Part shown: positions 11,259 to 29,402 of the stretch, one piece after another | Numbering within the stretch: the first letter of the stretch is position 1 | Layout of the letters: each line of letters begins with the position of its first letter | Made by a program: the position numbers and the translations under genes | Notes under the pieces: generated by a model | Databases searched by the model: none | The model's input: the letters and a program-made list of their open reading frames with translations, nothing else | What the model was told of the DNA's origin: nothing | Assembly (NCBI GenBank): GCA_963704435.1 | Contig: OY969902.1 | Span: 720,001 to 752,000 of the forward strand | Source: an uncultured archaeon | GTDB lineage: Archaea > Micrarchaeota > Micrarchaeia > Micrarchaeales > CABMGC01 | Reading direction: 5' to 3' | Length of the DNA stretch: 32,000 bases

Positions 11259-11300
11259 TTCGTCTGTTATGTGCGCGTGCACATTAAAAATAGTTGGTTG

Positions 11301-11750
11301 TTACGCTTTTGGTCTCCTTCCCAGGGGTTTCGGTATCTTCAGCTTCGGATACGCCTTCTGGAGCAGGTCGGGATTGACATCGAAGTCGAACTGCAGGCCC
11401 TGCACCACTCGCCTGAACAGGTAAGTCTGGGCTATCCCCGCCAGCTCTTCCTTTCCGCCCGTCGAGTTCTTCAGCACTTCCTTGATCTCCTTGGTGCCGA
11501 GCTTCTGCACGGCCTCCGCGAGCGCCCCGTAACTCTTCCTGGTTCCCTTCGTGAGCTCCGTCGCGTATTCGTCCAGCGCCTTTACGTCGATGCCGAGTAT
11601 CTCGAACGACTTCCTGTCTACGCTCTGCCTTATGCCTGCGAGCTGCAGCACTATCTCCTCGGGCATTGTGCCCTCTGTTATTCGTATCCTCTTCACGGCG
11701 ACCCAGTCCTTGTACCTGGCAAGGAACTCCACTGAATCTTCGCCGCCCAT
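11301..11750 (-). CDS. Hypothetical protein
   Basis: The track ORF 11301..11870 has an Arg/Ser-rich N-terminal extension that overlaps the upstream gene out of frame. The internal ATG at 11750 (MGGEDSVEFLARYKDW...) lies 19 nt after that gene's stop and gives a 149-aa product. No family recognised. Confidence 0.6.
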   Translation of the reverse strand: MGGEDSVEFLARYKDWVAVKRIRITEGTMPEEIVLQLAGIRQSVDRKSFEILGIDVKALDEYATELTKGTRKSYGALAEAVQKLGTKEIKEVLKNSTGGKEELAGIAQTYLFRRVVQGLQFDFDVNPDLLQKAYPKLKIPKPLGRRPKA

Positions 11751-11769
11751 GCAACCCCCAAAGAGAGCT

Positions 11770-11994
11770 TCAGAGGTCGGTCTGCAGGAGGTAGTAGCCC
11801 GCCGCCTTCTCCCTCGCGACGCGCTTGACGATGCCCCTCTGCGCGAGCGTAACGAGAGTGTTCGTGACAAGCCCCTTAGGCCTGTTCGTCTTCTTCATTA
11901 TGTCGTCCGCGGTCTTCAGCGCGCTGTCCTTCGTCGCGCCGAGCTCCTTCATCGAGCTCACAATCAGCCTCTCAATAGGCGTAAGTTCTACCAT
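11770..11994 (-). CDS. Small winged-helix DNA-binding protein (putative)
   Basis: 74 aa. Helix-turn-helix-like SALKTADDIMKKTNRPKGLVTNTLVTLAQRGIVKRV followed by a short wing (AAGYYLL). The call rests on pattern only. Confidence 0.55.
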   Translation of the reverse strand: MVELTPIERLIVSSMKELGATKDSALKTADDIMKKTNRPKGLVTNTLVTLAQRGIVKRVAREKAAGYYLLQTDL

Positions 11995-15817: not shown

Positions 15818-15826
15818 TTTTTATTG
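15818..15826 (+). promoter_or_regulatory. Candidate TATA box for the giant ORF
   Basis: tttttattg is centred about 27 nt upstream of ATG 15849, consistent with a leaderless archaeal transcript. No SD-like sequence lies in between. Confidence 0.35.
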
Positions 15827-15848: not shown

Positions 15849-18800
15849 ATGCCCGCTAAAATCGCGCAAGATCGGAATAATCTTGCATTTTCATTGCTAT
15901 TGGCGACCGTGTTGCTCGCTTTTGCCTCCACCACGGCAAGCGCCTCTAGCATAGTAAATACTATAATAGGGTTCAACGGACCGATCGGGATCGCGGTCTC
16001 GCCGTTCGGCTCCCAGGCCTACGTAGTAAACAACGGCAACAACACCGTGAGCGTAGTGACACTGAACGGCGTAAGCGGCGCAGCGAACGCCTTCTCCTTC
16101 AATGTCCCGTTCTCGGTCAATTCAGTCAACGTCGTATCGCTGATGATAGGCAACGGACTGGCGATAAACGGAGCCAACCAGCTCTATGCCACCGGAACGG
16201 CATTGACGGCCAACGCGCCAATCTTCATAGACTCCAACAACGCAATTTCGATCACCCAGGCGTCCGCGACGGTGAACGGATTCCTGTCGTCAGCCGACTG
16301 GAACACCTTCAGCACGGTCAACAGCAGGGCCTACGCATTCACGGTCACCAACATGCTCGGATACATAGGGAATGTCCTTTCGATATCGAACACGCCGTCC
16401 TTCATGACGGTCACTGCGAACATAATAGGCAACAACGCAGTCATCACTACGCTGACCGGGAACGTCATCGGGAGCACAGCATCCATCACCACGGTGAATG
16501 GCAACGTAATAGGCAATAATGCGGTATTCGGCTCATCAGTCAGTGCGGTGACACTCAACGGCAACGTCGTTGGAAACAACGCCGTGTTCACGTCAATCTC
16601 ATTCACTACACTGTCCGGTTCGACCTTCACAGGGAACATCGTTGGCAACAATGCCGTACTCACGAACATCTACGGAACACTCGCAGGGTCCAACACCATC
16701 TCATTCAGTACCGGCAACGGACAGACCCTGACGGCGAACATCATTGCGCCTAGTTCGATCTATGGAGTGATTTCCGGCGCAAACACGATCGCATTCTCGA
16801 CCGCGACTGGAACCACGGTCAATGCAAACACAGTCGGAACGACGGTCAGTGCGGTTACGCTTAACGGCAACGTCGTAGGCAACAACGCCGTGTTCACTTC
16901 AATATCATTCACTACACTGTCCGGTTCGACCTTCACAGGGAACATCGTTGGCAACAATGCCGTACTCACGAACATCTACGGAACACTCGCAGGGTCCAAC
17001 ACCATCTCATTCAGTACCGGCAACGGACAGACCCTGACGGCGAACATCATTGCGCCTAGTTCGATCTATGGAGTGATTTCCGGCGCAAACACGATCGCAT
17101 TCTCGACCGCGACTGGAACCACGGTCAATGCAAACACAGTCGGAACGACGGTCAGTGCGGTTACGCTTAACGGCAACGTCGTAGGCAACAACGCCGTGTT
17201 CACTTCAATATCATTCACTACACTGTCCGGTTCGACCTTCACAGGGAACATCGTTGGCAACAATGCCGTACTCACGAACATCTACGGAACACTCGCAGGG
17301 TCCAACACCATCTCATTCAGTACCGGCAACGGACAGACCCTGACGGCGAACATCATTGCGCCTAGTTCGATCTATGGAGTGATTTCCGGCGCAAACACGA
17401 TCGCATTCTCGACCGCGACTGGAACCACGGTCAATGCAAACACAGTCGGAACGACGGTCAGTGCGGTTACGCTTAACGGCAACGTCGTAGGCAACAACGC
17501 CGTGTTCACTTCAATATCATTCACTACACTGTCCGGTTCGACATTCTCGGGCAACCTGGTCGGGAACAACGCGGTACTTACTAACATCTACGGAACACTC
17601 GCAGGGTCCAACACCATCTCATTCAGTACCGGCAACGGACAGACCCTGACGGCGAACATCATTGCGCCTAGTTCGATCTATGGAGTGATTTCCGGCGCAA
17701 ACACGATCGCATTCTCGACCGCGACTGGAACCACGGTCAATGCAAACACAGTCGGAACGACGGTCAGTGCGGTTACGCTTAACGGCAACGTCGTAGGCAA
17801 CAACGCCGTGTTCACTTCAATATCATTCACTACACTGTCCGGTTCGACATTCTCGGGCAACCTGGTCGGGAACAACGCGGTACTTACTAACATCTACGGA
17901 ACACTCGCAGGGTCCAACACCATCTCATTCAGTACCGGCAACGGACAGACCCTGACGGCGAACATCATTGCGCCTAGTTCGATCTATGGAGTGATTTCCG
18001 GCGCAAACACGATCGCATTCTCGACCGCGACTGGAACCACGGTCAATGCAAACACAGTCGGAACGACGGTCAGTGCGGTTACGCTTAACGGCAACGTCGT
18101 AGGCAACAACGCCGTGTTCACTTCAATATCATTCACTACACTGTCCGGTTCGACATTCTCGGGCAACCTGGTCGGGAACAACGCGGTACTTACTAACATC
18201 TACGGAACACTCGCAGGGTCCAACACCATCTCATTCAGTACCGGCAACGGACAGACCCTGACGGCGAACATCATTGCGCCTAGTTCGATCTATGGAGTGA
18301 TTTCCGGCGCAAACACGATCGCATTCTCGACCGCGACTGGAACCACGGTCAATGCAAACACAGTCGGAACGACGGTCAGTGCGGTTACGCTTAACGGCAA
18401 CGTCGTAGGCAACAACGCCGTGTTCACTTCAATATCATTCACTACACTGTCCGGTTCGACATTCTCGGGCAACCTGGTCGGGAACAACGCGGTACTTACT
18501 AACATCTACGGAACACTCGCAGGGTCCAACACCATCTCATTCAGTACCGGCAACGGACAGACCCTGACGGCGAACATCATTGCGCCTAGTTCGATCTATG
18601 GAGTGATTTCCGGCGCAAACACGATCGCATTCTCGACCGCGACTGGAACCACGGTCAATGCAAACACAGTCGGAACGACGGTCAGTGCGGTTACGCTTAA
18701 CGGCAACGTCGTAGGCAACAACGCCGTGTTCACTTCAATATCATTCACTACACTGTCCGGTTCGACATTCTCGGGCAACCTGGTCGGGAACAACGCGGTA

Positions 18801-21800
18801 CTTACTAACATCTACGGAACACTCGCAGGGTCCAACACCATCTCATTCAGTACCGGCAACGGACAGACCCTGACGGCGAACATCATTGCGCCTAGTTCGA
18901 TCTATGGAGTGATTTCCGGCGCAAACACGATCGCATTCTCGACCGCGACTGGAACCACGGTCAATGCAAACACAGTCGGAACGACGGTCAGTGCGGTTAC
19001 GCTTAACGGCAACGTCGTAGGCAACAACGCCGTGTTCACTTCAATATCATTCACTACACTGTCCGGTTCGACATTCTCGGGCAACCTGGTCGGGAACAAC
19101 GCGGTACTTACTAACATCTACGGAACACTCGCAGGGTCCAACACCATCTCATTCAGTACCGGCAACGGACAGACCCTGACGGCGAACATCATTGCGCCTA
19201 GTTCGATCTATGGAGTGATTTCCGGCGCAAACACGATCGCATTCTCGACCGCGACTGGAACCACGGTCAATGCAAACACAGTCGGAACGACGGTCAGTGC
19301 GGTTACGCTTAACGGCAACGTCGTAGGCAACAACGCCGTGTTCACTTCAATATCATTCACTACACTGTCCGGTTCGACATTCTCGGGCAACCTGGTCGGG
19401 AACAACGCGGTACTTACTAACATCTACGGAACACTCGCAGGGTCCAACACCATCTCATTCAGTACCGGCAACGGACAGACCCTGACGGCGAACATCATTG
19501 CGCCTAGTTCGATCTATGGAGTGATTTCCGGCGCAAACACGATCGCATTCTCGACCGCGACTGGAACCACGGTCAATGCAAACACAGTCGGAACGACGGT
19601 CAGTGCGGTTACGCTTAACGGCAACGTCGTAGGCAACAACGCCGTGTTCACTTCAATATCATTCACTACACTGTCCGGTTCGACATTCTCGGGCAACCTG
19701 GTCGGGAACAACGCGGTACTTACTAACATCTACGGAACACTCGCAGGGTCCAACACCATCTCATTCAGTACCGGCAACGGACAGACCCTGACGGCGAACA
19801 TCATTGCGCCTAGTTCGATCTATGGAGTGATTTCCGGCGCAAACACGATCGCATTCTCGACCGCGACTGGAACCACGGTCAATGCAAACACAGTCGGAAC
19901 GACGGTCAGTGCGGTTACGCTTAACGGCAACGTCGTAGGCAACAACGCCGTGTTCACTTCAATATCATTCACTACACTGTCCGGTTCGACATTCTCGGGC
20001 AACCTGGTCGGGAACAACGCGGTACTTACTAACATCTACGGAACACTCGCAGGGTCCAACACCATCTCATTCAGTACCGGCAACGGACAGACCCTGACGG
20101 CGAACATCATTGCGCCTAGTTCGATCTATGGAGTGATTTCCGGCGCAAACACGATCGCATTCTCGACCGCGACTGGAACCACGGTCAATGCAAACACAGT
20201 CGGAACGACGGTCAGTGCGGTTACGCTTAACGGCAACGTCGTAGGCAACAACGCCGTGTTCACTTCAATATCATTCACTACACTGTCCGGTTCGACATTC
20301 TCGGGCAACCTGGTCGGGAACAACGCGGTACTTACTAACATCTACGGAACACTCGCAGGGTCCAACACCATCTCATTCAGTACCGGCAACGGACAGACCC
20401 TGACGGCGAACATCATTGCGCCTAGTTCGATCTATGGAGTGATTTCCGGCGCAAACACGATCGCATTCTCGACCGCGACTGGAACCACGGTCAATGCAAA
20501 CACAGTCGGAACGACGGTCAGTGCGGTTACGCTTAACGGCAACGTCGTAGGCAACAACGCCGTGTTCACTTCAATATCATTCACTACACTGTCCGGTTCG
20601 ACATTCTCGGGCAACCTGGTCGGGAACAACGCGGTACTTACTAACATCTACGGAACACTCGCAGGGTCCAACACCATCTCATTCAGTACCGGCAACGGAC
20701 AGACCCTGACGGCGAACATCATTGCGCCTAGTTCGATCTATGGAGTGATTTCCGGCGCAAACACGATCGCATTCTCGACCGCGACTGGAACCACGGTCAA
20801 TGCAAACACAGTCGGAACGACGGTCAGTGCGGTTACGCTTAACGGCAACGTCGTAGGCAACAACGCCGTGTTCACTTCAATATCATTCACTACACTGTCC
20901 GGTTCGACATTCTCGGGCAACCTGGTCGGGAACAACGCGGTACTTACTAACATCTACGGAACACTCGCAGGGTCCAACACCATCTCATTCAGTACCGGCA
21001 ACGGACAGACCCTGACGGCGAACATCATTGCGCCTAGTTCGATCTATGGAGTGATTTCCGGCGCAAACACGATCGCATTCTCGACCGCGACTGGAACCAC
21101 GGTCAATGCAAACACAGTCGGAACGACGGTCAGTGCGGTTACGCTTAACGGCAACGTCGTAGGCAACAACGCCGTGTTCACTTCAATATCATTCACTACA
21201 CTGTCCGGTTCGACATTCTCGGGCAACCTGGTCGGGAACAACGCGGTACTTACTAACATCTACGGAACACTCGCAGGGTCCAACACCATCTCATTCAGTA
21301 CCGGCAACGGACAGACCCTGACGGCGAACATCATTGCGCCTAGTTCGATCTATGGAGTGATTTCCGGCGCAAACACGATCGCATTCTCGACCGCGACTGG
21401 AACCACGGTCAATGCAAACACAGTCGGAACGACGGTCAGTGCGGTTACGCTTAACGGCAACGTCGTAGGCAACAACGCCGTGTTCACTTCAATATCATTC
21501 ACTACACTGTCCGGTTCGACATTCTCGGGCAACCTGGTCGGGAACAACGCGGTACTTACTAACATCTACGGAACACTCGCAGGGTCCAACACCATCTCAT
21601 TCAGTACCGGCAACGGACAGACCCTGACGGCGAACATCATTGCGCCTAGTTCGATCTATGGAGTGATTTCCGGCGCAAACACGATCGCATTCTCGACCGC
21701 GACTGGAACCACGGTCAATGCAAACACAGTCGGAACGACGGTCAGTGCGGTTACGCTTAACGGCAACGTCGTAGGCAACAACGCCGTGTTCACTTCAATA

Positions 21801-23753
21801 TCATTCACTACACTGTCCGGTTCGACATTCTCGGGCAACCTGGTCGGGAACAACGCGGTACTTACTAACATCTACGGAACACTCGCAGGGTCCAACACCA
21901 TCTCATTCAGTACCGGCAACGGACAGACCCTGACGGCGAACATCATTGCGCCTAGTTCGATCTATGGAGTGATTTCCGGCGCAAACACGATCGCATTCTC
22001 GACCGCGACTGGAACCACGGTCAATGCAAACACAGTCGGAACGACGGTCAGTGCGGTTACGCTTAACGGCAACGTCGTAGGCAACAACGCCGTGTTCACT
22101 TCAATATCATTCACTACACTGTCCGGTTCGACATTCTCGGGCAACCTGGTCGGGAACAACGCGGTACTTACTAACATCTACGGAACACTCGCAGGGTCCA
22201 ACACCATCTCATTCAGTACCGGCAACGGACAGACCCTGACGGCGAACATCATTGCGCCTAGTTCGATCTATGGAGTGATTTCCGGCGCAAACACGATCGC
22301 ATTCTCGACCGCGACTGGAACCACGGTCAATGCAAACACAGTCGGAACGACGGTCAGTGCGGTTACGCTTAACGGCAACGTCGTAGGCAACAACGCCGTG
22401 TTCACTTCAATATCATTCACTACACTGTCCGGTTCGACATTCTCGGGCAACCTGGTCGGGAACAACGCGATCTTCACCACAATAAATGCGATAACCTTTA
22501 GTGGGAACATTGTAGGCAACAATGCAGTATTCTCCGGATCAATAAACGTAGGTTCGTGCATAGGCTGCGGCACTGGCAGCGGAGTTACCAGCATCAACGG
22601 TCTTACGGGCGCCGTGAATGTAGTCGGACAGAATGTGATTACTGCTTATGCAAGCAGCCAGAATGTAATATTGTCGATACCTCAGGCAACGGGCTCGCTC
22701 AGCGGCTATCTTGCATCAGGAGATTGGACCATCTTTAACGGGAAGTTCGGAACGGCGGGCACCGGACTTTATGCTTCAGCGACTACGGTCAACTTGGCAC
22801 CCCTCACAGCAGGATATGGGATAAGCATAGGCACCAATGGCAATACGATAATCGCAACGGGTGTCCCTTCAATCTCCGCAGGTACAGGAATACTAGTCAA
22901 CACCGCGAACCAGATTTCGCTAATACCCCTTACCGCAGGCACTGGAATAAGCATAGGCGGTAGCGGCAATACAATAACCTGTACGGGCTGCTCAGGCACT
23001 GCATTCAGTACGGCGGGCACGGGACTTTATTCATCAGGAACAACTGTATCCCTTGCACCTCTGACGGCAGGATTTGGAATACGTGTCGGAACTAACGGGA
23101 ACACGATAACTGCGACAGGAGTTCCTTCAATAAGCGCGGGGACTGGCATAGCGATTACGACCTCCAACCAGATTGCGCTGGCTACCCCGACGAACACCCT
23201 GCCTATCTCAATCACGAGCACAAACAACATCGCCTTGAACATAGGGGCTGGCCTTATGACATCGGCAGGCAAGCTCGCGCTCATACCCGCTAATTCGGAG
23301 AACCCAGCCAACCCGACAGGTACTACTTCAAGCAGCTTATATGTTTACATGGGCACGGGCTTAGTTGGAGGCAGCGGCACTGCGCTCGGCTTCACGCCTG
23401 CGGCAGGAGGGAGCGGCAACGTTATGTTCCAATGCCAGCTTGATGCAGCAGACAACAAGGTATCCTCAACAACGTCGGTCACGAACACCATAAGCATCAA
23501 GCTAGGATATGGCAGCACTGGTAGCAACCCAGTCAATGGAGGAGCCGTGGGCTCAAACTCATTCATAGGACCCGTTCTGGGCCCATATACCTCTTATCCG
23601 GCAACAACTCTTGTGCACACTGACATTGCCCAGATTATCACAGGGCTATCACCAGGAACTAAATACTGGGTCGATTTTGCGGTAGAATCCAGCTCAAGCA
23701 GCAATACGGGTTCGATAAGCAACATCTGGTGCCAGTGGTGGAACGTTGGGTGA
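15849..23753 (+). CDS. Giant secreted repeat protein (2,634 aa): signal peptide, one YVTN-type blade, about 19.4 x 102-aa repeats, tail-fibre-like shaft and C-terminal head
   Basis: Single uninterrupted ORF. The N-terminus MPAKIAQDRNNLAFSLLLATVLLAFASTTASA-SS looks like a Sec signal. IIGFNGPIGIAVSPFGSQAYVVNNGNNTVSVVTL matches the YVTN beta-propeller repeat pattern. It is followed by the repeat array and a C-terminal region with no TM segment. Confidence 0.9.
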   Translation: MPAKIAQDRNNLAFSLLLATVLLAFASTTASASSIVNTIIGFNGPIGIAVSPFGSQAYVVNNGNNTVSVVTLNGVSGAANAFSFNVPFSVNSVNVVSLMIGNGLAINGANQLYATGTALTANAPIFIDSNNAISITQASATVNGFLSSADWNTFSTVNSRAYAFTVTNMLGYIGNVLSISNTPSFMTVTANIIGNNAVITTLTGNVIGSTASITTVNGNVIGNNAVFGSSVSAVTLNGNVVGNNAVFTSISFTTLSGSTFTGNIVGNNAVLTNIYGTLAGSNTISFSTGNGQTLTANIIAPSSIYGVISGANTIAFSTATGTTVNANTVGTTVSAVTLNGNVVGNNAVFTSISFTTLSGSTFTGNIVGNNAVLTNIYGTLAGSNTISFSTGNGQTLTANIIAPSSIYGVISGANTIAFSTATGTTVNANTVGTTVSAVTLNGNVVGNNAVFTSISFTTLSGSTFTGNIVGNNAVLTNIYGTLAGSNTISFSTGNGQTLTANIIAPSSIYGVISGANTIAFSTATGTTVNANTVGTTVSAVTLNGNVVGNNAVFTSISFTTLSGSTFSGNLVGNNAVLTNIYGTLAGSNTISFSTGNGQTLTANIIAPSSIYGVISGANTIAFSTATGTTVNANTVGTTVSAVTLNGNVVGNNAVFTSISFTTLSGSTFSGNLVGNNAVLTNIYGTLAGSNTISFSTGNGQTLTANIIAPSSIYGVISGANTIAFSTATGTTVNANTVGTTVSAVTLNGNVVGNNAVFTSISFTTLSGSTFSGNLVGNNAVLTNIYGTLAGSNTISFSTGNGQTLTANIIAPSSIYGVISGANTIAFSTATGTTVNANTVGTTVSAVTLNGNVVGNNAVFTSISFTTLSGSTFSGNLVGNNAVLTNIYGTLAGSNTISFSTGNGQTLTANIIAPSSIYGVISGANTIAFSTATGTTVNANTVGTTVSAVTLNGNVVGNNAVFTSISFTTLSGSTFSGNLVGNNAVLTNIYGTLAGSNTISFSTGNGQTLTANIIAPSSIYGVISGANTIAFSTATGTTVNANTVGTTVSAVTLNGNVVGNNAVFTSISFTTLSGSTFSGNLVGNNAVLTNIYGTLAGSNTISFSTGNGQTLTANIIAPSSIYGVISGANTIAFSTATGTTVNANTVGTTVSAVTLNGNVVGNNAVFTSISFTTLSGSTFSGNLVGNNAVLTNIYGTLAGSNTISFSTGNGQTLTANIIAPSSIYGVISGANTIAFSTATGTTVNANTVGTTVSAVTLNGNVVGNNAVFTSISFTTLSGSTFSGNLVGNNAVLTNIYGTLAGSNTISFSTGNGQTLTANIIAPSSIYGVISGANTIAFSTATGTTVNANTVGTTVSAVTLNGNVVGNNAVFTSISFTTLSGSTFSGNLVGNNAVLTNIYGTLAGSNTISFSTGNGQTLTANIIAPSSIYGVISGANTIAFSTATGTTVNANTVGTTVSAVTLNGNVVGNNAVFTSISFTTLSGSTFSGNLVGNNAVLTNIYGTLAGSNTISFSTGNGQTLTANIIAPSSIYGVISGANTIAFSTATGTTVNANTVGTTVSAVTLNGNVVGNNAVFTSISFTTLSGSTFSGNLVGNNAVLTNIYGTLAGSNTISFSTGNGQTLTANIIAPSSIYGVISGANTIAFSTATGTTVNANTVGTTVSAVTLNGNVVGNNAVFTSISFTTLSGSTFSGNLVGNNAVLTNIYGTLAGSNTISFSTGNGQTLTANIIAPSSIYGVISGANTIAFSTATGTTVNANTVGTTVSAVTLNGNVVGNNAVFTSISFTTLSGSTFSGNLVGNNAVLTNIYGTLAGSNTISFSTGNGQTLTANIIAPSSIYGVISGANTIAFSTATGTTVNANTVGTTVSAVTLNGNVVGNNAVFTSISFTTLSGSTFSGNLVGNNAVLTNIYGTLAGSNTISFSTGNGQTLTANIIAPSSIYGVISGANTIAFSTATGTTVNANTVGTTVSAVTLNGNVVGNNAVFTSISFTTLSGSTFSGNLVGNNAVLTNIYGTLAGSNTISFSTGNGQTLTANIIAPSSIYGVISGANTIAFSTATGTTVNANTVGTTVSAVTLNGNVVGNNAVFTSISFTTLSGSTFSGNLVGNNAVLTNIYGTLAGSNTISFSTGNGQTLTANIIAPSSIYGVISGANTIAFSTATGTTVNANTVGTTVSAVTLNGNVVGNNAVFTSISFTTLSGSTFSGNLVGNNAIFTTINAITFSGNIVGNNAVFSGSINVGSCIGCGTGSGVTSINGLTGAVNVVGQNVITAYASSQNVILSIPQATGSLSGYLASGDWTIFNGKFGTAGTGLYASATTVNLAPLTAGYGISIGTNGNTIIATGVPSISAGTGILVNTANQISLIPLTAGTGISIGGSGNTITCTGCSGTAFSTAGTGLYSSGTTVSLAPLTAGFGIRVGTNGNTITATGVPSISAGTGIAITTSNQIALATPTNTLPISITSTNNIALNIGAGLMTSAGKLALIPANSENPANPTGTTSSSLYVYMGTGLVGGSGTALGFTPAAGGSGNVMFQCQLDAADNKVSSTTSVTNTISIKLGYGSTGSNPVNGGAVGSNSFIGPVLGPYTSYPATTLVHTDIAQIITGLSPGTKYWVDFAVESSSSSNTGSISNIWCQWWNVG
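16539..22469 (+). repeat. 306-bp (102-codon) in-frame tandem repeat: 19 full units plus a 117-bp partial unit
   Basis: Units start at 16539+306k (checked at 16539, 16845, 17457 and 22353). Three 5' units are type A (TGNIV patch), followed by 16 full type-B units (SGNLV patch) and a partial type-B unit. Minus-strand 71-aa shadow ORFs recur every 306 bp with identical translations. Confidence 0.95.
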
Positions 23754-23830: not shown

Positions 23831-26014
23831 ATGAGAGTTGGACTTTTACTTGGCTTAGTCCTCGTGGCCATCCTGATGGGGACGTCAAGTGCCGCAACGG
23901 TATTTGGATTCAACTCACCCTACTCTGCCGCGATCTCCCCCACCCAGAATTATGTCTATGTAACCAATAGCGGAAACAACACAGTAAGCATCGTCAATTC
24001 CATGAACGACATGATAATCGGAACGATAACCGGCTTTGATATTCCCACCGGAATCGCAATAACCCCAAACGGAACCTTCCTGTATGTTGCCAACTTTGGC
24101 GATAACGAGCTGGCGAAAGTAAGCACCGCGACCGGCATGATCATCGACTTTACTGGTGGGTTTAATCAGCCAGAGTATGTTTCCCTGTCTCCGGACGGGA
24201 AGACCGCATATGTCACTAACCAAGGAAACGGCCAGGTAAGCGCGGTGGCCCTGGCTCCGCGGCCTCTTCCAACAATCGCGCCAATAAATCCCGCTTATGA
24301 CCTTGGCCAGCCAATAACCCTTACCGCCAGCTGGGCCGCGAGCTCGCCTCCTTATACGGCAAACTGGATCATAGAACAGGGATCCAGCCCGGTATTCAAT
24401 GCCCAATATTCTGGAATAACCGGCCTTAACAGCATACTGTCCCTGTCATCAACGACCCTTGGCGTGGGAGACTTTGCCGCCAACGTGATTGTAGAAGACG
24501 GGTCATCAGTCATGACGAGCTCGGCAGAGGACGCATTCGCTATAAGTTCAATATTGAATCCAGCGAATCCCGTCCCATATGATCCTGTCATAACTAGCGG
24601 CCAGAGCGTGACCCTCACGGCAAACCCCAACGGGGGATCGGGCTCCTACTCCTATACATGGTACGTAAGTTTGACCTCGCCTTGCAGTTCCAGCTGGATA
24701 GAGGTGGGGACGGGCCCGTCGATCACGGTGGTTCCTGCAGCCAACTTATACTATTGCTATGTCGTTACGGACAGCGCGACAACGCCCGTGTCTGGGACAT
24801 CCGGTTCTGACCTAGTCACTGTCAATCAGGGCAGCTCCACTACCACGAGCAGCACCGGCAGCACTGGAAGCGGACCGGGCGGAGGAGGAGGCGGAGGCGT
24901 CCAAAAGCCAATAATAATGGAGGCAATCTCGAACTCGACCTCCACATTAGTGAATTTGCTGGGCGAGAAAACAGGCCTCAACATAACCTCCTCGGTGCCG
25001 AGCCAGAATGAGGACATAATCCTAAACATCGCGTCTCTCAATACGTTTAATGTGACGCTGCACGGGGAAAGGCTTAATTTCACCACAAACTTCATATCCC
25101 CGACAAGCGCCGGAATGACGATAAACAACCAAGAATACGTGTTTTCCCAGAATACCACTTTCCTGATAAAACAGAAGAATTACAACTATACGCTTAGCGT
25201 TGAACTATTCAACATATCGATCCTGCCTATCCTGAATACCGTAGAGCTTGCAGTAAGCTCCGAGCCAAACCCCATAAACATTACCGCGCAGAATTTCACA
25301 ATGGCCATACTGTCGAACCAGACCCTCTCCGTCCAGAACCTGACCTCTTCAAGATTCGTCCCGTCAATCCCCACAGGGTACTATAAGCAACTGGTTCAGA
25401 ACGTAAGCGTGCGACAGATACCTGGCACCCCGAATCCAAGGATAAATACGACGGTCGGCGTCGCGATAAAGTACAACTGCAGCATCCCTTCCTACGATGA
25501 GATCCCGCTCATCCTATCCAATTACTCGTGGGCGCAGGTCAGCTCGTTCACCGTGAGACCCAATGACTGCGTGGTGACCTTTTCGTTCCATTCGGATCCA
25601 GTCATGGCCCTTACCAGGTACGTGGGTCCCTCAAACAAAACCAAGCCGCCCACCACGACTATCCCCTACTGCCCTGTGGAATCGCAGGCCGGGTGCATCG
25701 CAATCCCTGCAAACTCGCTTTCACACACATCCACGACAAGCATTCCCTATCAACAGTCCAACCATAAAATAAATGTGCCGCCTTTAGCGCTCTATTCCCT
25801 TGGAGCAGTGGCCGCAGCCGTCATAGCCTGGATCGCCTATAGGAGGTATCGGCTAAGGCCGCGCAAGCCGAAAGAAGGAGCCCGCTCTAAGGTAAGCGGG
25901 GCCAAGCCGCAGGAGGAAGGTCCGCGCGCCGGAAAGAAGGCAAAGAGGGGCAAATCCTCGAAGGCCGGGCAATCGGACAGGCTCAAATCCATAAGCGACG
26001 AGCTGGAAGAGTAG
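23831..26014 (+). CDS. Membrane-anchored surface (glyco)protein: signal peptide, 3 YVTN blades, 2 PKD/Ig-like domains, Gly hinge, sequon-rich stalk, C-terminal TM and basic tail
   Basis: ATG 23831 gives MRVGLLLGLVLVAILMGTSSAA (signal-like); the track's GTG 23774 extension is not hydrophobic. Three blades of pattern (F/Y)V(T/A)N.G.N.(V/L)S. Two domains with PITLTASW...PPYTANW and SVTLTANPNGGSGSYSYTWY. GGGGGGG. C-terminal LYSLGAVAAAVIAWIAY followed by RRYRLRPRKPKEG.... Confidence 0.85.
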   Translation: MRVGLLLGLVLVAILMGTSSAATVFGFNSPYSAAISPTQNYVYVTNSGNNTVSIVNSMNDMIIGTITGFDIPTGIAITPNGTFLYVANFGDNELAKVSTATGMIIDFTGGFNQPEYVSLSPDGKTAYVTNQGNGQVSAVALAPRPLPTIAPINPAYDLGQPITLTASWAASSPPYTANWIIEQGSSPVFNAQYSGITGLNSILSLSSTTLGVGDFAANVIVEDGSSVMTSSAEDAFAISSILNPANPVPYDPVITSGQSVTLTANPNGGSGSYSYTWYVSLTSPCSSSWIEVGTGPSITVVPAANLYYCYVVTDSATTPVSGTSGSDLVTVNQGSSTTTSSTGSTGSGPGGGGGGGVQKPIIMEAISNSTSTLVNLLGEKTGLNITSSVPSQNEDIILNIASLNTFNVTLHGERLNFTTNFISPTSAGMTINNQEYVFSQNTTFLIKQKNYNYTLSVELFNISILPILNTVELAVSSEPNPINITAQNFTMAILSNQTLSVQNLTSSRFVPSIPTGYYKQLVQNVSVRQIPGTPNPRINTTVGVAIKYNCSIPSYDEIPLILSNYSWAQVSSFTVRPNDCVVTFSFHSDPVMALTRYVGPSNKTKPPTTTIPYCPVESQAGCIAIPANSLSHTSTTSIPYQQSNHKINVPPLALYSLGAVAAAVIAWIAYRRYRLRPRKPKEGARSKVSGAKPQEEGPRAGKKAKRGKSSKAGQSDRLKSISDELEE

Positions 26015-26101
26015 ATTGCGGGAGGAGTTACTGGAAGGAAGTCCCGCGCTCGCGGAAACGGAAAATCTTTAAAAGGTTAGGTGCCTGTTAATCCTAGCAA
26101 G

Positions 26102-26854
26102 ATGATTGCGATGCCCGATCCGCGCATAATAGGGGTTGTCAGCCAGAAAGGGGGAGTCGGCAAGACCGCGATAGCCGTGAACCTCTCCGTTATCCTGAGG
26201 CTCAAGGGCTACAGGGTGCTGACCGTTGACGGCGACACCAGCAATCCGAACATGGGCATCCAGCTGGGGATGGAGAACGCAAACATAGGCTTCAAGGAGC
26301 TCGCCACAAAGAAAAGCAAGGTGGACGGCGTAGTGACGATACACGGCACCACTGGCCTTCACGTAGTCCTGGGGACCCTCCGCTCAAAGCCGTACCTCCT
26401 TACCAAAGCCGACGTAATCCGGCTGAAGTCCAAGCTCAAGGAATGCGACTATGATTTCGTGATACTAGACACCGCGCCCGGATTCTACGCGACCGAGGCG
26501 ATGGAGCTCCTTGACGAGGCGATACTCGTCGCCACGCCCGACACGCCAGCGGTGACCGGAATCCTGCGGCTCAACAGGATCCTGAAGGGGATGGGGGCAG
26601 AGCGCTACATCGTGCTCAACAGGGTGAAGGGGAAGAAATACGAGCTCCAGCCTGATGAGATAGAGGACGCCAGCGAGGACAAGGTGGTTGCCGCCATACC
26701 TGATGACGACATAGTCAACGAGAGCCTTGCCGAGAGGATACCCGCGTGCATGATGGGCAGGAACTCCGATTTCTCCAAAGCCGTGACTAAGCTCGCGGTC
26801 AAGCTGTCCGCAGGCAAGAAGAGAGCAAGCGCCCCCTTAGCTAGCTCGCCATGA
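26102..26854 (+). CDS. MinD/ParA-family P-loop ATPase
   Basis: IIGVVSQKGGVGKTAIAVNLS (deviant Walker A with signature Lys), LTVDGD, and DFVILDTAPG (Walker B). ATG 26102 is preferred over the track's GTG 26081, because a ctttaaaag TATA-like element (26067-26075) lies about 30 nt upstream of it. Confidence 0.9.
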   Translation: MIAMPDPRIIGVVSQKGGVGKTAIAVNLSVILRLKGYRVLTVDGDTSNPNMGIQLGMENANIGFKELATKKSKVDGVVTIHGTTGLHVVLGTLRSKPYLLTKADVIRLKSKLKECDYDFVILDTAPGFYATEAMELLDEAILVATPDTPAVTGILRLNRILKGMGAERYIVLNRVKGKKYELQPDEIEDASEDKVVAAIPDDDIVNESLAERIPACMMGRNSDFSKAVTKLAVKLSAGKKRASAPLASSP

Positions 26855-26885
26855 GCGCCTGGAAGGCAGCCGAATCCCGTACTGC

Positions 26886-26930
26886 TTTATATATCTTGGT
26901 CTGGAAATAAACTAGTCTAGGATTAGACCA
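26886..26930 (+). promoter_or_regulatory. Candidate promoter (TATA tttatatat) plus inverted-repeat operator upstream of the PadR-ABC operon
   Basis: TATA-like tttatatat at 26886-26894. Outer inverted repeat TGGTCT (26897-26902) / AGACCA (26925-26930). Inner palindrome GTCTA-N4-TAGAC (26915-26928). All lie between the TATA box and ATG 26940. Confidence 0.4.
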
Positions 26931-26939
26931 TACTATCTG

Positions 26940-27302
26940 ATGCGCATGTTTGACAAGGACGCCCTATTCAAGAAGTTCGACGCCGCGATGATGCACGGGG
27001 CTCTGAAGCTCATCGTGCTCGCTCACCTCCGCGACAGCGGCACGTACCCATATGCTATGCTGAAGCACTTCAAGGGCAGCGGCCACTCATTCCTCGCGGG
27101 CATGGGCAAGTCGGAGATGTACAACATAATCAATTCGCTGGAGAAGGAGGGCTTCGTGTCTTACCGCATAGTCAAGAAGGGAGCGCGGTCGCAGAAGCAC
27201 TATGCGCTCACGCCGAAGGGAAGGAAGGTGATCGGGACATCGAAGCAGATAATGACCCGGGCTATGGGCGACTTCAGGAAGCTTGTGAAGAGTGAGTTCT
27301 GA
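26940..27302 (+). CDS. PadR-family transcriptional regulator
   Basis: 120 aa. LKLIVLAHLRDSGTYPYAMLKHF...MYNIINSLEKEGFVSYRIVKKGARSQKHYALTPKGRKV fits the PadR winged-helix pattern (LEKxGxV...RKxYxLTxxG). Its stop overlaps the next ATG (TGATG). Confidence 0.8.
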   Translation: MRMFDKDALFKKFDAAMMHGALKLIVLAHLRDSGTYPYAMLKHFKGSGHSFLAGMGKSEMYNIINSLEKEGFVSYRIVKKGARSQKHYALTPKGRKVIGTSKQIMTRAMGDFRKLVKSEF

Positions 27303-28294
27303 TGGACGACTATGCGATAGAAATGGACAACGCGGTCCAGAAGTTCGGCGACTTCATCGCAGTCGACGGGATCACCCTGAAGATAAAGAAGGGCGAGATA
27401 TTCGGGCTCTTGGGGCCGAACGGCGCCGGAAAGAGCACCATAATAAACATGCTTCTCGGGCTGCTGAAGCCCACTTCGGGAAGCGTCTTCGTGAACGGTG
27501 TCGACATGCAGAAGGACCCGAACCGCGCGAAGAAGACGCTGGGCGTGGTCACGCAGGAGACCGTCGTCGAGCCCGAGCTAACCGCAGAGCAGAACCTGAT
27601 GATCTTCGGAGACCTCTACCACGTGCCCAGAGAGAAGCTTCCCAAGAAGATAGACTTCCTGCTGGAGCTCGCCGACCTGAAAAATTTCCGCAAGTCGTAC
27701 GCAGGCACCTTCTCGGGAGGAATGAAGCGCAGGCTCGAGACGGTGAAGGCCCTCGTGCACGACCCCGACATAATCTTCATGGACGAGCCGACGACCGGGC
27801 TTGACATCCAAAACAGGACGAGGATGTGGCAGCTCCTTAGGCAGATAAACAGGGAGAGGAACGTCACGGTGCTCATGACCACGCAATACCTGGAGGAGGC
27901 GGACCAGATGTGCAACAGGATCGCGATAATAGACCACGGGAAGCTCGTGGCAGTCGGAACGCCCGCGGAACTGAGGCAGAAGATCGGGCTCTATGACATC
28001 ATAGAGATCGCCGCAGACAAGGAGGACCTGCAGAAGGTCGCGCAGATATTCAAGAAGCTGGGCCTGGAACCGCAGGCCCTCAGCAACAAGGTGATCTGTT
28101 CTGTAAAGAGCGACGCGGTGAAGACGATAGAGAGGCTGATAAAGACCATAACCGCCGCAGGCATAAAGATACAGAGCGTAAGTCTGCACGAGCCCACGAT
28201 AGACGACGTCTTCCTGAAGCTGACGGGCTCCTCTGTGAGGGACGCGACAGGCGAGTACGTGGGAAAGGGCATATCGTTCGGAGGTAGAAGATAG
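27302..28294 (+). CDS. ABC transporter ATP-binding protein (ABC-2/DrrA-like subfamily)
   Basis: 330 aa. GEIFGLLGPNGAGKST (Walker A), FSGGMKRRLE (signature), IIFMDEPTTGLD (Walker B), TTQYLEEAD (H-loop). Confidence 0.95.
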   Translation: MDDYAIEMDNAVQKFGDFIAVDGITLKIKKGEIFGLLGPNGAGKSTIINMLLGLLKPTSGSVFVNGVDMQKDPNRAKKTLGVVTQETVVEPELTAEQNLMIFGDLYHVPREKLPKKIDFLLELADLKNFRKSYAGTFSGGMKRRLETVKALVHDPDIIFMDEPTTGLDIQNRTRMWQLLRQINRERNVTVLMTTQYLEEADQMCNRIAIIDHGKLVAVGTPAELRQKIGLYDIIEIAADKEDLQKVAQIFKKLGLEPQALSNKVICSVKSDAVKTIERLIKTITAAGIKIQSVSLHEPTIDDVFLKLTGSSVRDATGEYVGKGISFGGRR

Positions 28295-28295
28295 C

Positions 28296-29402
28296 ATGAG
28301 CATAATGGAAGACGCGACGACCCTGTTCACAAGGGAGATGCTGATATTCAAGAAGAATATCACCGCGGGCTTAGCCAGGACCATCATCTTTCCTGTCATA
28401 TTCATACTTCTCCTCGGAAGCATAGGCAACACCCCGCAGCACGTCCCGATAGCGGTGGTAAACTTCGACAACGGCGCGGCATCGCTGGCGTTCATAAACA
28501 TGCTTACCTCGGGCGGGGCGCTCAGCGTCAAGGGAATGACTGACCAGCAGGATGCGATGAGCCTCCTGGCACAGGGAAGCGTCGCGGCCGTGGTCGTCAT
28601 ACCCAGCGGCTTCTCGAGCTCCAGTTCATCCGATGTCTTCGTCTACGTGGATGCCTCGTCGTCCGCCTCGGCCGAGGTAGCTACCAGCGTGATAAGCTCG
28701 GCTGCGTCAAGCATGAACTCGAAGCTTGTCGCAAGGAACGCGCAGGGCGAGGGGATATCCGTAATCACCAACCCCGCCTACGGGGCGACCAGCAACAACA
28801 TCAGCTTCACCGTAGCCGGAATACTGGTGCTCGTAGCGACTACGGGAGCCATATTCAGCGGCGGGTTCACGGTGCTGCAGGACAGGCAGCTCGGCAACCT
28901 CAAGGCGTTCCTCGTGACCCCCATAAACAAGGTCTCGATACTCCTCAGCAAGGTGTTCTACGGCACGTTCCAGTCCGCGTTCAGCGCATACGTTGCGCTC
29001 GCCATCGGGCTGCTGTACGGCGCGAGCATCGCATCGGGCGTTGTCGGAATGCTGGAGATACTCTGGTTCATATTCCTCGTAGGCTTCGGGTTCAGCTGCA
29101 TAGCGGTGTCCCTGGCGATAAGGATGAAGCAGACGCAGACCTACGCCCTTGTCGCGCAGGTGGTGTCGCTCCCGCTTTCGTTCCTCGCAGGCGCACTGGT
29201 CCCCGTGTCCTCGCTGCCCGCCTTCCTGGCCCCCCTGGCGGCCTTCAACCCGCTGACCTACGCAGTCAACGCAGTAAGGGACATAATGCTCAAGGGCTCG
29301 CTTCCGATCGGGGCGTTCCTCGTCGATTCGACGATACTGATAGCCTTCTCAATAGTCATGCTGGCGATAAGCGTCTTGCTATTTAAGAATATAAACGAAT
29401 AA
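28296..29402 (+). CDS. ABC-2 type transporter permease
   Basis: 368 aa. N-terminal TM, a large extracytoplasmic loop, then five C-terminal TM helices, the typical ABC-2 topology. It starts 1 nt after the ATPase stop. Confidence 0.88.
   Translation: MSIMEDATTLFTREMLIFKKNITAGLARTIIFPVIFILLLGSIGNTPQHVPIAVVNFDNGAASLAFINMLTSGGALSVKGMTDQQDAMSLLAQGSVAAVVVIPSGFSSSSSSDVFVYVDASSSASAEVATSVISSAASSMNSKLVARNAQGEGISVITNPAYGATSNNISFTVAGILVLVATTGAIFSGGFTVLQDRQLGNLKAFLVTPINKVSILLSKVFYGTFQSAFSAYVALAIGLLYGASIASGVVGMLEILWFIFLVGFGFSCIAVSLAIRMKQTQTYALVAQVVSLPLSFLAGALVPVSSLPAFLAPLAAFNPLTYAVNAVRDIMLKGSLPIGAFLVDSTILIAFSIVMLAISVLLFKNINE

Follow-up and report, generated by a model that had tools for sequence, protein, structure and literature searches.

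The gene at positions 15849-23753 of the window (the whole 32-kb stretch of DNA that was analysed) encodes what we regard, with slightly better than even confidence, as a very long extracellular fibre of an archaeon, held at the cell and ending in a ligand-binding tip of the phage tail fibre type. The most likely use of such a fibre is the grabbing of other cells or surfaces. By analogy, it is probably a trimeric adhesin working like the MAT fibres of Bdellovibrio. A sequence-only reading had described the gene as one giant open reading frame for a charge-free secreted fibre with tail-fibre-like ends, and this interpretation was supported in all testable parts; each element that it named was recovered at its given position. 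The features of the locus are listed below.

15819..15826 (+), TTTTTATT box rich in A/T, ending some 23-30 nt before the ATG, read from the letters
15849..23753 (+), gene of the giant fibre with 2,634 codons and a stop, ATG start, the sole frame open across the array
15849..15944 (+), Sec-type signal peptide, aa 1-32, with predicted cleavage after A-S-A
15960..16064 (+), single YVTN-type beta-propeller blade, aa 38-72, similar to the blades of the downstream protein
16065..16367 (+), N-terminal module of the fibre, aa 73-173, with motif 1 inside it and resembling P0013
16251-16310 (+), motif 1, ITQASATVNGFLSSADWNTF, aa 135-154, common to the phmmer class-A matches
16368..16538 (+), lead-in of degenerate GNxIGNNA sub-repeats, aa 174-230, aligning with the 14-aa arrays of P0007
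16539..22469 (+), tandem array of a 306-bp (102-aa) unit in 19.4 copies (TRF, 99% matches)
22470..22676 (+), rod exit with the last sub-repeats, the C-x-G-C knot SCIGCG (22554-22571) and the GVTSINGLTGAVNVVGQNV element
22677..22745 (+), motif 2, IPQATGSLSGYLASGDWTIFNGK, aa 2277-2299, of the G(F/Y)L(S/A)SxDWxxF type
22746..23288 (+), two shaft modules of about 85 aa with (S/T)AGTG(L/I)...LxPLTAGxGI sub-motifs, and the linker to the head
23289..23750 (+), C-terminal head, aa 2481-2634, a conserved all-beta domain of about 150 aa
23831..26014 (+), partner candidate of 727 aa with signal peptide, three YVTN blades and an Ig-like region

For the remaining five frames the frame check gave 6-36 stops per three array units. 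Copies 4-19 of the array (17457-22352) are 16 units with 100% identical DNA. Copies 1-3 differ by 12-19 nt, 10-17 of which fall on third codon positions, and the unit variants show 8-15 synonymous versus 2 non-synonymous codon changes. Orthologs were found on four other contigs (L029, L036, L041 and L026). Judged from the open frame, the codon changes and the orthologs, this is a real, selected gene. The TTTTTATT box is possibly the archaeal TATA box of a leaderless transcript.

The proposed Sec-type signal peptide was recognised by eye and by hydropathy. It has an n-region with K4 and R9, a hydrophobic core at aa 12-27 and the site A-S-A followed by S at aa 30-33. By Kyte-Doolittle hydropathy this core scores higher than any other window of the protein, and it is the sole strongly hydrophobic stretch. 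No lipobox Cys was present at the signal peptide and, as had been noted before, hydropathy revealed no hydrophobic segment at the C-terminus. With no TM segment, lipobox or sorting signal, the fibre could simply be released from the cell. The single YVTN blade was recovered at aa 38-72 by its identity to two blades of the next gene, 55% to blade 1 (E 2e-7) and 53% to blade 3 (E 1e-6). It stays below the thresholds of Pfam and NCBIfam (TIGR02276), and of the consecutive blades of a closed propeller, the criterion of TIGR02276, the fibre has only one. The same start of signal peptide plus blade occurs in P0084, L036 and L041. The N-terminal fibre region is 42.5% identical to P0013 across 160 aa, and a PHROG search with the N-terminal 230 aa gave no match. 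In the entire fibre there are 20 ionisable residues (D8, E2, K6, R3, H1).

Export is also indicated by the distribution of N-x-S/T sequons. One sequon was observed in the fibre versus 26.6 +/- 4.2 expected, a depletion that none of 5,000 shuffles reached and that is found in all three independent fibre segments. The relatives behave likewise, with observed versus expected values of 0 vs 11.4 (L029), 1 vs 17.6 (P0013), 0 vs 18.4 (P0022), 0 vs 6.3 (P0008) and 1 vs 7.7 (L036). In contrast, the adjacent anchored surface proteins are sequon-enriched, with 18 observed vs 11.5 expected for the partner candidate; the giant-virus fibre is neutral in sequon content. An N-glycosylation system is expressed by Micrarchaeota (bioRxiv 10.1101/2021.04.28.441871). 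Avoidance in the fibre family together with enrichment in the neighbouring surface proteins argues for export, and secretion of the fibre is supported by the signal peptide features and the family-wide avoidance. The fibre family is a clear example of a secreted archaeal protein family in which N-glycosylation sequons are selected against, and sequon depletion could therefore be a general signature of tightly packed extracellular fibres.

At the distal end the two shaft modules with AGTG sub-motifs (aa 2300-2480) and the compact head were found as the sequence-only reading had placed them. The shaft region contains a second C-x-G-C (22977-22997), and homologous shaft modules occur in P0068, P0022, P0062 and P0008 (alignment A3). 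The rod-exit elements, the C-x-G-C knot and GVTSINGLTGAVNVVGQNV, are also present in P0013, P0068, P0022 and P0008. Both G(F/Y)L(S/A)SxDWxxF motifs bracket the array as described. An exhaustive phmmer search gave 77 relatives, most of which score best over motif 2, and the GxLSxxDWxxF motif is common to dozens of multi-motif fibre-like proteins, in agreement with the earlier likening of these motifs to tail-fibre proteins.

The head belongs to a family in which P, G, G, P, N, T, G, W and D are invariant (alignment A1) and which is placed at the extreme C-terminus in 18/18 other loci examined. Its carriers are 17 IMG/VR viral contigs and three bacterial MAGs; the profile search of genome contigs with the head returned the three bacterial MAG loci only and missed the source genome. 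For some viral carriers the N-terminal parts match PHROG families of the tail fiber (3.4e-19; 1.8e-5), tail spike and virion structural categories. The tail-fibre-like C-terminal end, claimed before from motifs, is thus a statement of homology; the family occurs only at the C-termini of fibre-like proteins. The AF2 monomer model of the head (pLDDT 80.8, pTM 0.76) is a predicted TNF/C1q-like jelly roll. Foldseek against the PDB matched this model to the CBD of the cyanophage A-1(L) short tail fibre, the BC2L-C lectin, C1q, RANKL, the knob of a phage needle and fibre Bd2133 of Bdellovibrio (8ond). The model resembles the trimeric TNF/C1q-type knobs that phage fibres and lectins carry. These fold matches are modest (TM 0.43-0.60; best PDB E-value 8.8e-4). 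Against BFVD, 63 viral matches reached E<=1e-3, with C1q-domain proteins and minor tail proteins among them. No terminus was placed in an intracellular fold, a placement that the first reading had named as contrary to its view.

By sequence, nothing above noise was obtained for N-terminus, unit, shaft or head in Pfam, PHROGs, NCBIfam and PDB sequences. The same applies to phmmer and profile searches of PDB sequences with the C-terminal 428 aa and the head, and to tblastn of head and shaft against 50,697 deposited phage genomes. Matches of fibre parts to FN3-like and adenoviral-fibre proteins (E 0.04-6.7) were rejected as insignificant. The word-index homology search was nearly blind to this low-complexity fibre: the 798-aa form found P0007 only, the N-terminal 230 aa missed even the identical P0006, and two units gave P0084 alone at E 8e-3. 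Its lack of matches is therefore weak evidence.

The gene following the fibre supplies a candidate for its attachment. The encoded protein further has a sequon-rich stalk, a C-terminal TM helix and a basic tail. The protein passes NCBIfam TIGR02276 (beta_rpt_yvtn), and the 727-aa call in L001 agrees. It is 60% identical to the gene after the fibre ortholog in L029. In that ortholog the rod (46% identity) and the partner are kept and the C-terminal domain is unrelated. The tip change with retained rod and partner shows, at the level of the sequences compared, that the tip is an exchangeable module. The closest relatives of the tip lie on contigs that resemble mobile elements or viruses.

These data bear on the reading of the protein as a structural part of the envelope or matrix (sheath, S-layer accessory or biofilm fibre), with a functional rod and ends that serve assembly only. 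We consider it unlikely. The highly repetitive, uncharged composition rich in N, T, S and G would suit such a protein, and so would the neighbouring surface proteins (the YVTN protein and a CARDB protein) and the lack of a known ligand. However, the C-terminal domain is a conserved stand-alone module at viral fibre tips, and orthologs that exchange the tip but retain the rod follow the pattern of receptor-binding proteins, not of lattice proteins. Furthermore, S-layer proteins of archaea typically carry many glycosylation sites (10.1101/2021.04.28.441871), whereas the fibre family avoids sequons. An S-layer protein was rejected on account of this avoidance and of the exchangeable tip, and none of the S-layer families gave a match.

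The rod itself corresponds to the repeat of about 2,000 aa described earlier, in frame and made of 102-aa units that contain T, N, G, S, V, A, I, L, F, Y, Q and P only and hence no charged residue. The unit has a hydrophobic periodicity of about 4.86 aa and is internally duplicated at lags of 24 and 30. This periodicity is a likeness to beta-solenoids, not a family membership: no profile of the beta-solenoid families (pentapeptide, hexapeptide, pectate-lyase-like, ice-binding) matched the rod. A search of three units against Pfam at E<=10 returned noise only, and NCBIfam gave the same result. Single-sequence AF2 of the lead-in plus three units reached pLDDT 49, and this monomer model was left out of the fold search. 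An Ig-like extender of the bead-on-a-string type was rejected, because relatives have the sub-repeats that make up the unit but not its 102-aa period.

The array length gives rise to a second rival explanation, quite unlikely in our estimate. It takes the long array for an assembly artefact or a rare variant and the real protein for a short surface fibre of about 800 aa with one to two units. The copy number of 19.4 rests on one assembly, and the short-read contig L001, 99.7-99.8% identical, carries a fibre gene with 1.4 units and 798 aa. The 16 units of identical DNA could result from polishing or repeat mis-assembly, and the exact 2,634-aa sequence is absent from a collection of 15 billion proteins. 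However, L001 is a short-read-style scaffold, and its short array is explicable because a perfect 306-bp repeat must collapse in such assemblies. The contigs of the relatives L026, L036 and L041 end, and that of L029 starts, inside arrays, as expected if several species truly have long arrays. In addition, the array is in frame and shows the classic pattern of units that are diverged at the edges and homogenised in the core, and the source contig of 853 kb suggests long reads. A shorter array would be compatible with the rest of the best explanation.

On one side of the gene lies LeuRS, a protein that passes TIGR00395, an archaeal equivalog; on the other side is a ParA-PadR-ABC-CARDB block, which relatives also have. 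Further neighbours in the window are CysRS, CTP synthase and an intron-bearing tRNA. Read from the DNA, the host is an archaeon, and probably a small symbiotic DPANN of the Micrarchaeota type, the fibre evidence for this placement being one label (Ca. Micrarchaeota) on one distant homolog, P0084, the nearest that was found. No housekeeping genes are common to the window and the contigs of this homolog.

This setting is relevant for a third alternative, a protein of a virion or mobile element, for example a tail fibre or attachment fibre from an archaeal virus that has integrated. In its favour, relatives of head, shaft and motifs lie on viral contigs and on mobile-element-like ones (L027, which has a resolvase, and L051, which has an integrase and a DnaA-like initiator), the pair of fibre and YVTN gene is absent from the syntenic site in L028, and the GC content of the pair (0.53) is slightly under that of the flanks (0.564). 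We nevertheless hold this origin to be very unlikely. No capsid, portal, terminase, integrase or other viral gene was found in the 32-kb window, and the flanks are LeuRS and the conserved block. The N-terminus consists of a Sec signal peptide and a blade of a cellular membrane protein instead of a virion-attachment domain, and the P0084 ortholog likewise adjoins housekeeping genes, SerRS and eRF1. A prophage tail fibre was rejected because viral neighbours are lacking. The remaining likeness to phage tail fibres concerns the distal end. The CBD of the A-1(L) short tail fibre (8ke9) has a knob fold similar to that of the modelled archaeal head, homologous heads stand at the C-termini of viral-contig proteins with tail fiber or tail spike N-parts, and the G(Y/F)LSxxDWxxFNxK and AGTG shaft motifs are held in common. 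In contrast to phage fibres, the archaeal gene is chromosomal.

A beta-solenoid with flat Thr/Asn-rich faces that binds ice, mineral or another ordered surface along the rod would fit the T/N/G/S-rich, uncharged composition and the regular hydrophobic periodicity of about five residues, but it is highly improbable, as no ice-binding or beta-solenoid family match was found in Pfam, NCBIfam or PDB sequences, the rod model stays at pLDDT 49 and the conserved, swappable phage-type tip would be left unexplained.

In the favoured reading as a cell-held fibre with a phage-type tip, the protein would be exported by Sec via the cleavable signal peptide, as the sequence features and the sequon avoidance suggest. 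The N-terminal end with the single YVTN blade would stay at the cell, where the membrane-anchored partner with three blades plausibly holds it. About 2,000 uncharged, sequon-free residues, presumably all-beta, would form a continuous rod that serves as spacer. This rod is composed of GNxxGNNxx-type sub-repeats of about 14-15 aa; from the type of knob and from the relatives it is probably trimeric. Recombination between the perfect 306-bp units may shift its length in steps of 102 aa. The distal end would be a cassette of the phage tail fibre type, as homology and the fold model indicate, with the GYLASGDWxxFNGK motif, the AGTG shaft and the TNF/C1q-like knob. This cassette would bind a ligand, most likely a surface glycan or an envelope protein of another cell. 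The tip is exchangeable, as a related genome keeps rod and partner gene with another tip.

Among known systems, the MAT fibres of Bdellovibrio bacteriovorus are similar in several respects. Behind a signal peptide they have an N-domain that is conserved, then a beta shaft that is trimeric, and tips that can be swapped, TNF-like domains among them; the best match of the Bd2734 tip is the BC2L-C lectin 2WQ4 (PMC10769870). Like the archaeal fibre, they are encoded by the cell and not by a virus, and the signal peptide is followed by a beta-rich N-terminal region (about 140 aa in the fibre and an N-domain of about 130 aa in MATs, compared by description). Both have a long phage-fibre-like beta shaft, the archaeal one being predicted from its sequence. 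The exchangeable adhesive tips of MATs correspond to the head, whose model matches TNF/C1q knobs including 8ond and, at rank 3, 2WQ4, and to the swapped tip in L029. In both systems the organism must recognise other cells. The MATs are bacterial and the fibre is archaeal, 2.6 times longer through its perfect 102-aa array, almost free of charges and sequons and without an S74 domain. Its N-terminal element is a YVTN blade, a feature not described for MATs. No sequence similarity to MAT fragments in the PDB was detected with phmmer of the C-terminal 428 aa or with head profiles.

Region II of MpAFP (MpIBP), a giant RTX adhesin of bacteria, consists of about 120 identical repeats of 104 residues (PMC4083281). 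As in the fibre, tandem units of about 100 aa with identical DNA form most of the protein, and the array projects a ligand-binding end outward with its length set by the copy number, as would be the case for the fibre. The units of MpAFP are discrete, Ca2+-dependent, acidic Ig-like domains, whereas the fibre unit lacks D and E and is built of sub-repeats of about 14-15 aa, in relatives also without the 102-aa period. The fibre would leave the cell via Sec, not by type I secretion, and has no RTX motif; Ig, BIg and RTX matches were not found for it in Pfam and NCBIfam.

Little is known about the means by which DPANN and other small symbiotic archaea locate their hosts and stay attached to them, and we know of no defined host-recognition protein of Micrarchaeota. 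The locus is a concrete candidate with separable parts, i.e. a tip of about 150 aa, a possible anchor protein and a repeat array that can be compared between strains. In a Microcaldota co-culture, thin bulb-tipped 'antennae', reminiscent of phage tail fibres, were observed by cryo-ET; they sat on the S-layer of the host and no gene was assigned to them (PMC11329633). These filaments and the giant surface proteins of other DPANN archaea are candidates for host contact in the same setting and are likened here by description only. A more specific version of the preferred reading can be offered tentatively, its chances being clearly lower than even: the fibre would be a host-recognition organelle of a DPANN episymbiont, the archaeal counterpart of MATs and the product of the gene for such bulb-tipped filaments. 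Its blade would complete the three-blade propeller of the partner, the rod would be trimeric and adjustable in length, and the tip would be derived from viruses or mobile elements and still be exchanged. If this is true, an uncharged, deliberately non-glycosylated rod spans the distance to the partner cell, and the tip came from viruses or mobile elements that target the same hosts and is still exchanged with them.

Giant viruses (NCLDV) encode fibre-like proteins of 1,100-2,800 aa, a length comparable to that of the fibre, with 14-aa TLTGNVIGNNVDVI arrays (P0007; L032-L049) that share the GN(V/I/L)(V/I)GNN(A/V) sub-motif. For the repeats of fibre and P0007 a pairwise BLAST value of 7e-24 and a database E-value of 8.6e-13 were obtained. 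A 14-mer HMM from the giant-virus array was without statistical power on the 102-aa unit. The viral genes lie between major-capsid paralogs at a GC content of 0.37-0.38, and their products differ from the fibre by the lack of a signal peptide, by different ends, by charged residues in the repeats and by neutral sequon content. This similarity may be convergent low complexity. As a sequence family the GNxxGNN rod is without a name and links archaeal cells and giant viruses. The head and the AGTG shaft are further unnamed families, which together with the rod link archaeal cells, mobile elements, phages and giant viruses. One of the NCLDV members ends in a Peptidase_S74 chaperone, a hallmark of trimeric viral fibres.

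The large repeat gene of the window is best explained as a whole by a long extracellular archaeal fibre, in which a rod serves as spacer for a phage-type binding tip; we consider this reading somewhat likelier to be right than wrong. The following parts of the gene and its product, the fibre protein, were located.

15849-23753, + strand: single open reading frame of 2,634 codons, read from the sequence
16539-22469, + strand: tandem array of a 306-bp unit with 99% matches (Tandem Repeats Finder), 19.4 copies by a count that rests on one assembly
17457-22352, + strand: units 4-19, 100% identical in DNA (dissection of the array)
aa 38-72 of the fibre protein: YVTN-type blade, matching blades 1 and 3 of the partner (next gene) with 55% and 53% identity
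aa 135-154 and aa 2277-2299: copies of the DW motif, G(F/Y)L(S/A)SxDWxxF
aa 2300-2480: two AGTG modules (shaft)
aa 2481-2634: terminal domain (head)

Thus, the open reading frame, array, DW motifs, AGTG modules and C-terminal region described in the sequence-only reading were all found in their places. The same holds for the single YVTN blade, which matches the two partner blades, and for the Sec-type signal peptide, for which a basic n-region (K4, R9), a hydrophobic stretch (aa 12-27) and an A-S-A↓S site are present. The unit was correctly described as free of charged residues: only T, N, G, S, V, A, I, L, F, Y, Q and P occur in its 102 aa, and 20 of the 2,634 residues of the whole protein are ionisable. 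No strongly hydrophobic stretch other than aa 12-27 exists in the protein, and none was found near its C-terminus. The claimed lack of a C-terminal membrane segment or anchor agrees with this, as neither a TM segment nor a lipobox nor a C-terminal sorting signal was found in the fibre. Units 1-3 are 12-19 nt away from the core units, and the final partial unit is divergent. Third codon positions hold 10-17 of the differences in units 1-3, with 8-15 synonymous versus 2 non-synonymous codon changes. As the annotated frame is also the only one without stops through the array, the open reading frame is a selected coding sequence and not a chance one.

A perfect 306-bp repeat must collapse in a short-read-style assembly. 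In L001 (ENA ERZ19048913 scaffold_6283), a short-read-style scaffold with 99.7-99.8% identity, the gene has 1.4 units and encodes 798 aa. The arrays of the related contigs L026, L036 and L041 are cut by the contig end, and the contig of L029 begins within the array. Since these contigs break inside the arrays, long arrays are probably real in several species. In each of these short-read contigs the array is either collapsed (L001) or broken, so public MAGs and protein databases will, as a rule, contain truncated or shortened proteins of the fibre family.

For the rod, a hydrophobic periodicity of ~4.86 residues was determined in the unit, together with internal duplications at lag 24 (GNxVGNNAV) and lag 30 (IYGxxxGxNTIxFST). 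By eye the unit was split into seven sub-repeats of 12-17 aa each. L029 and the homologous protein P0084 contain the sub-repeats without the 102-aa period. Hence, we regard the 102 aa as the unit by which a continuous rod was amplified, rather than as an Ig-like bead. A single-sequence AF2 model of the rod was all-beta with a pLDDT of 49, and no match to a beta-solenoid family was obtained with Pfam and NCBIfam profiles. The rod would be ~65 nm long if each of the ~140 sub-repeats formed one 4.8-Å solenoid coil, and up to ~185 nm at a rise of ~1.3 nm per sub-repeat, as in viral triple beta-spirals. The sub-motif GN(V/I/L)(V/I)GNN(A/V) of the unit forms perfect 14-aa arrays (TLTGNVIGNNVDVI) in the protein P0007 and in 16 metagenomic loci (GC 0.37-0.38, proteins of 1,100-2,800 aa). 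In one of these loci, L040, the array gene (6704-11887) lies between two NCLDV major-capsid paralogs and near genes of an N-myristoyltransferase and an AEP primase. The array protein of L033 ends with a Peptidase_S74 chaperone, a hallmark of trimeric viral fibres. From their sequences, the 14-aa-array proteins of the aquatic NCLDV contigs (L032-L049) look like undescribed virion fibres.

Furthermore, the fibre protein was examined regarding N-x-S/T sequons. It contains 341 Asn and 784 Ser+Thr, yet only one sequon, whose Asn is N64 of the conserved blade motif. For a non-redundant version of 900 aa, 26.6 +/- 4.2 sequons were expected versus 1 observed, and none of 5,000 shuffles reached 1. Each segment is depleted (observed versus expected: N-terminal 1 vs 7.1, unit 0 vs 4.3, C-terminal 0 vs 10.8), and so are independent relatives (L029 fibre 0 vs 11.4, L036 1 vs 7.7, P0013 1 vs 17.6, P0022 0 vs 18.4, P0008 0 vs 6.3). 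The adjoining anchored surface proteins are enriched in sequons (23831-26014, 18 vs 11.5; 29411-30985, 12 vs 6.5), as is the L029 partner (20 vs 11.7). A giant-virus fibre with the common sub-motif is neutral (45 observed, 44.4 expected). Selection against sequons makes sense only if the chain meets the archaeal oligosaccharyltransferase; thus, export of the fibre is indicated. The depletion suggests that glycans would disturb the packing of the Asn-rich rod and the tip. For Micrarchaeota, an N-glycosylation system and a glycosylated S-layer protein are reportedly expressed (bioRxiv 10.1101/2021.04.28.441871). The avoidance of sequons in the fibre family is a new observation.

Word-index searches were nearly blind to the fibre protein. 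With an exhaustive phmmer search using the C-terminal 428 aa, 77 proteins were identified, none of which belongs to a Pfam family. They form three groups: in class A, an A(T/S)xxxxG(Y/F)L(S/T)xxDWxxFNxK module occurs in many copies; class B has the head in common with the fibre; and in the third group (P0013, P0022, P0068, P0062, P0008) the AGTG shaft and further linker elements recur. In the class A protein P0012, with several GYLxxxDWxxFNxK motifs, a stretch resembling the trimerising foldon of T4 fibritin was noticed at aa 720-745 (PEAPSDGTAYNRKNAAWV; PDB matches with E 0.03-0.2).

An alignment of 14 sequences describes the head as a well-conserved domain of ~150 aa. P, G, G, P, N, T, G, W and D are invariant in it, and it is characterised by the motifs PxNPTGTTS, VMMGLG, YGTGTAPxNGAAxTGT and ITGLTxGTxYWFD. 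Scans with this family detected 17 viral contigs of IMG/VR and 3 loci of bacterial MAGs. In 18 of the 18 loci examined the head is located at the extreme C-terminus, in proteins of 181-1,630 aa. The N-terminal parts of several of them matched PHROG families for tail fiber (3.4e-19, 1.8e-5), tail spike (1.4e-4) and virion structural protein (4e-8). The proposal of tail-fibre-like ends is borne out by these viral relatives. No match to head or shaft was obtained by tblastn against 50,697 deposited phage genomes, so the head family lives in uncultivated viruses. The AF2 model of the head, computed with the alignment, was all-beta (pLDDT 80.8, pTM 0.76). Its best Foldseek match in the PDB was the CBD of the short tail fibre of cyanophage A-1(L) (E 8.8e-4), followed by a cyanophage A4 tail protein, the TNF-like N-domain of the BC2L-C lectin, 4-1BBL, C1q, RANKL, a phage needle knob and the Bdellovibrio Bd2133 fibre, at TM 0.42-0.51. 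In BFVD 63 viral models were matched at E<=1e-3 with TM up to 0.60, including C1q-domain proteins, giant-virus collagen-repeat proteins and a minor tail protein. These modest yet consistent matches of the model point to a TNF/C1q-type knob. Such knobs are trimers in known cases.

The neighbours of the fibre gene, which lies on a source contig of 852,977 bp, are cellular genes. Upstream TspO, LemA, an M48 peptidase, YgjP, CysRS, CTP synthase, a Rieske ferredoxin, a flavodoxin-like protein and LeuRS are encoded; downstream follow the YVTN membrane protein (the partner), ParA, PadR, an ABC-2 transporter, a CARDB surface protein and a DAC-domain protein. Two tRNA genes were located in the window.

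8794-8918, - strand: tRNA of 125 nt, 45.8 bits (Rfam), missed by ARAGORN in bacterial mode
11186-11258, - strand: normal tRNA-Pro(TGG)

The 125-nt tRNA is probably an intron-containing archaeal tRNA. LeuRS scores above the cut-off of the archaeal equivalog TIGR00395 (836.9 vs 648.5 bits), and together with this tRNA it identifies the host as an archaeon. A hint to its lineage comes from P0084, with 38-40% identity the homolog closest to the fibre in N-terminus and rod, which bears the label 'Candidatus Micrarchaeota archaeon'.

The block of ParA, PadR, ABC-2 ATPase, permease and CARDB protein (26081-30985) is kept in three related genomes including L028 and L029, and the ABC ATPase of L029 belongs to the same 90%-identity cluster as that of the window. 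The fibre and YVTN pair upstream of this block is present in two of the three genomes and missing in L028; it thus behaves as a variable island. L029 has a partial fibre gene at the corresponding site, with rod repeats 46% identical to those of the window fibre; the next gene encodes a YVTN membrane protein that has 60% identity to the partner. DW motif, AGTG shaft and head are absent from this partial gene, which ends with an unrelated domain of ~110 aa. The closest relative of the head, P0008 (46% identity), has the same order of motif, shaft and head. Apart from a resolvase and HTH proteins, its small contig (L027) encodes many tiny ORFs. P0022 (L051) and P0023 (L050) are surrounded by small ORFs that lack annotation, and an integrase and a DnaA-like initiator are encoded there, too. 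Judged by gene content, these three contigs probably represent mobile elements or viruses of archaea, of an unfamiliar type. As rod and partner are kept, the tip is swapped and its relatives reside on mobile or viral DNA, the tip behaves as a receptor-binding module.

The partner (23831-26014) passes the YVTN repeat model TIGR02276. It consists of three YVTN blades and an Ig-like region of the 'SGGxxPYxYxW' type, followed by a stalk with many sequons, a TM helix and a long cytoplasmic tail rich in Lys and Arg. Three blades are too few to close a propeller, and the fibre contains exactly one more. In the proposed mechanism the fibre would be exported via Sec with cleavage of the signal peptide. 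Its N-terminal end would then be held at the cell, putatively by docking to the three-blade, C-terminally anchored partner, since the single fibre blade is common to the partner. The uncharged, non-glycosylated beta rod, probably trimeric, would act as spacer, and the perfect DNA repeats would permit changes of rod length via recombination. The distal phage-type cassette of DW motif, AGTG shaft and TNF/C1q-like knob, for which homology was demonstrated and the fold of the knob was modelled, would bind a ligand on another cell or surface.

The closest functional analogue are the MAT fibres of Bdellovibrio, which are cell-encoded, have a signal peptide and a conserved N-domain, and carry tips that can be swapped on trimeric beta shafts (PMC10769870). 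MAT tips include TNF-like domains with the lectin 2WQ4 as best structural match, and one tip binds prey glycans (PMC10769870); 2WQ4 is matched by the fibre head, too. No sequence similarity to solved MAT fragments was found in PDB-sequence searches. Hence, the fibre would work like a MAT fibre, but membership is not claimed. Phage tail fibres have homologous tips, whereas their defining viral context and virion-attachment N-terminus are both absent in the archaeal fibre. With MpAFP (PMC4083281) the design of an identical ~100-aa extender array is shared, but Ca2+-binding residues, Ig-like unit logic and RTX secretion signal are missing from the fibre. By cryo-ET of a Microcaldota co-culture, filaments not assigned to a gene were described, which are thin, have a bulb at the tip and were called 'reminiscent of bacteriophage tail fibers' (PMC11329633); this is a lead and not a link. 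The fibre is best read as an adhesin of the tail-fibre type that is encoded by an archaeal cell and carries a giant extender array. Signal peptide, sequon avoidance and viral-fibre homology of the head support the extracellular fibre or adhesin first proposed, as far as computation goes. As judged from sequence, it is built from three unnamed families and is of unusual, charge-free and sequon-free chemistry.

C-x-G-C motifs were observed exactly at the module borders (SCIGCG, 22554-22571; TCTGCSG, 22977-22997) and again in P0068, P0013 and the L029 fibre. They could be inter-chain staples or metal sites. A Cys pair of the head (aa 2529 and 2628; window ~23433 and ~23730) is common only to P0023 and co-varies; it may form a disulfide.
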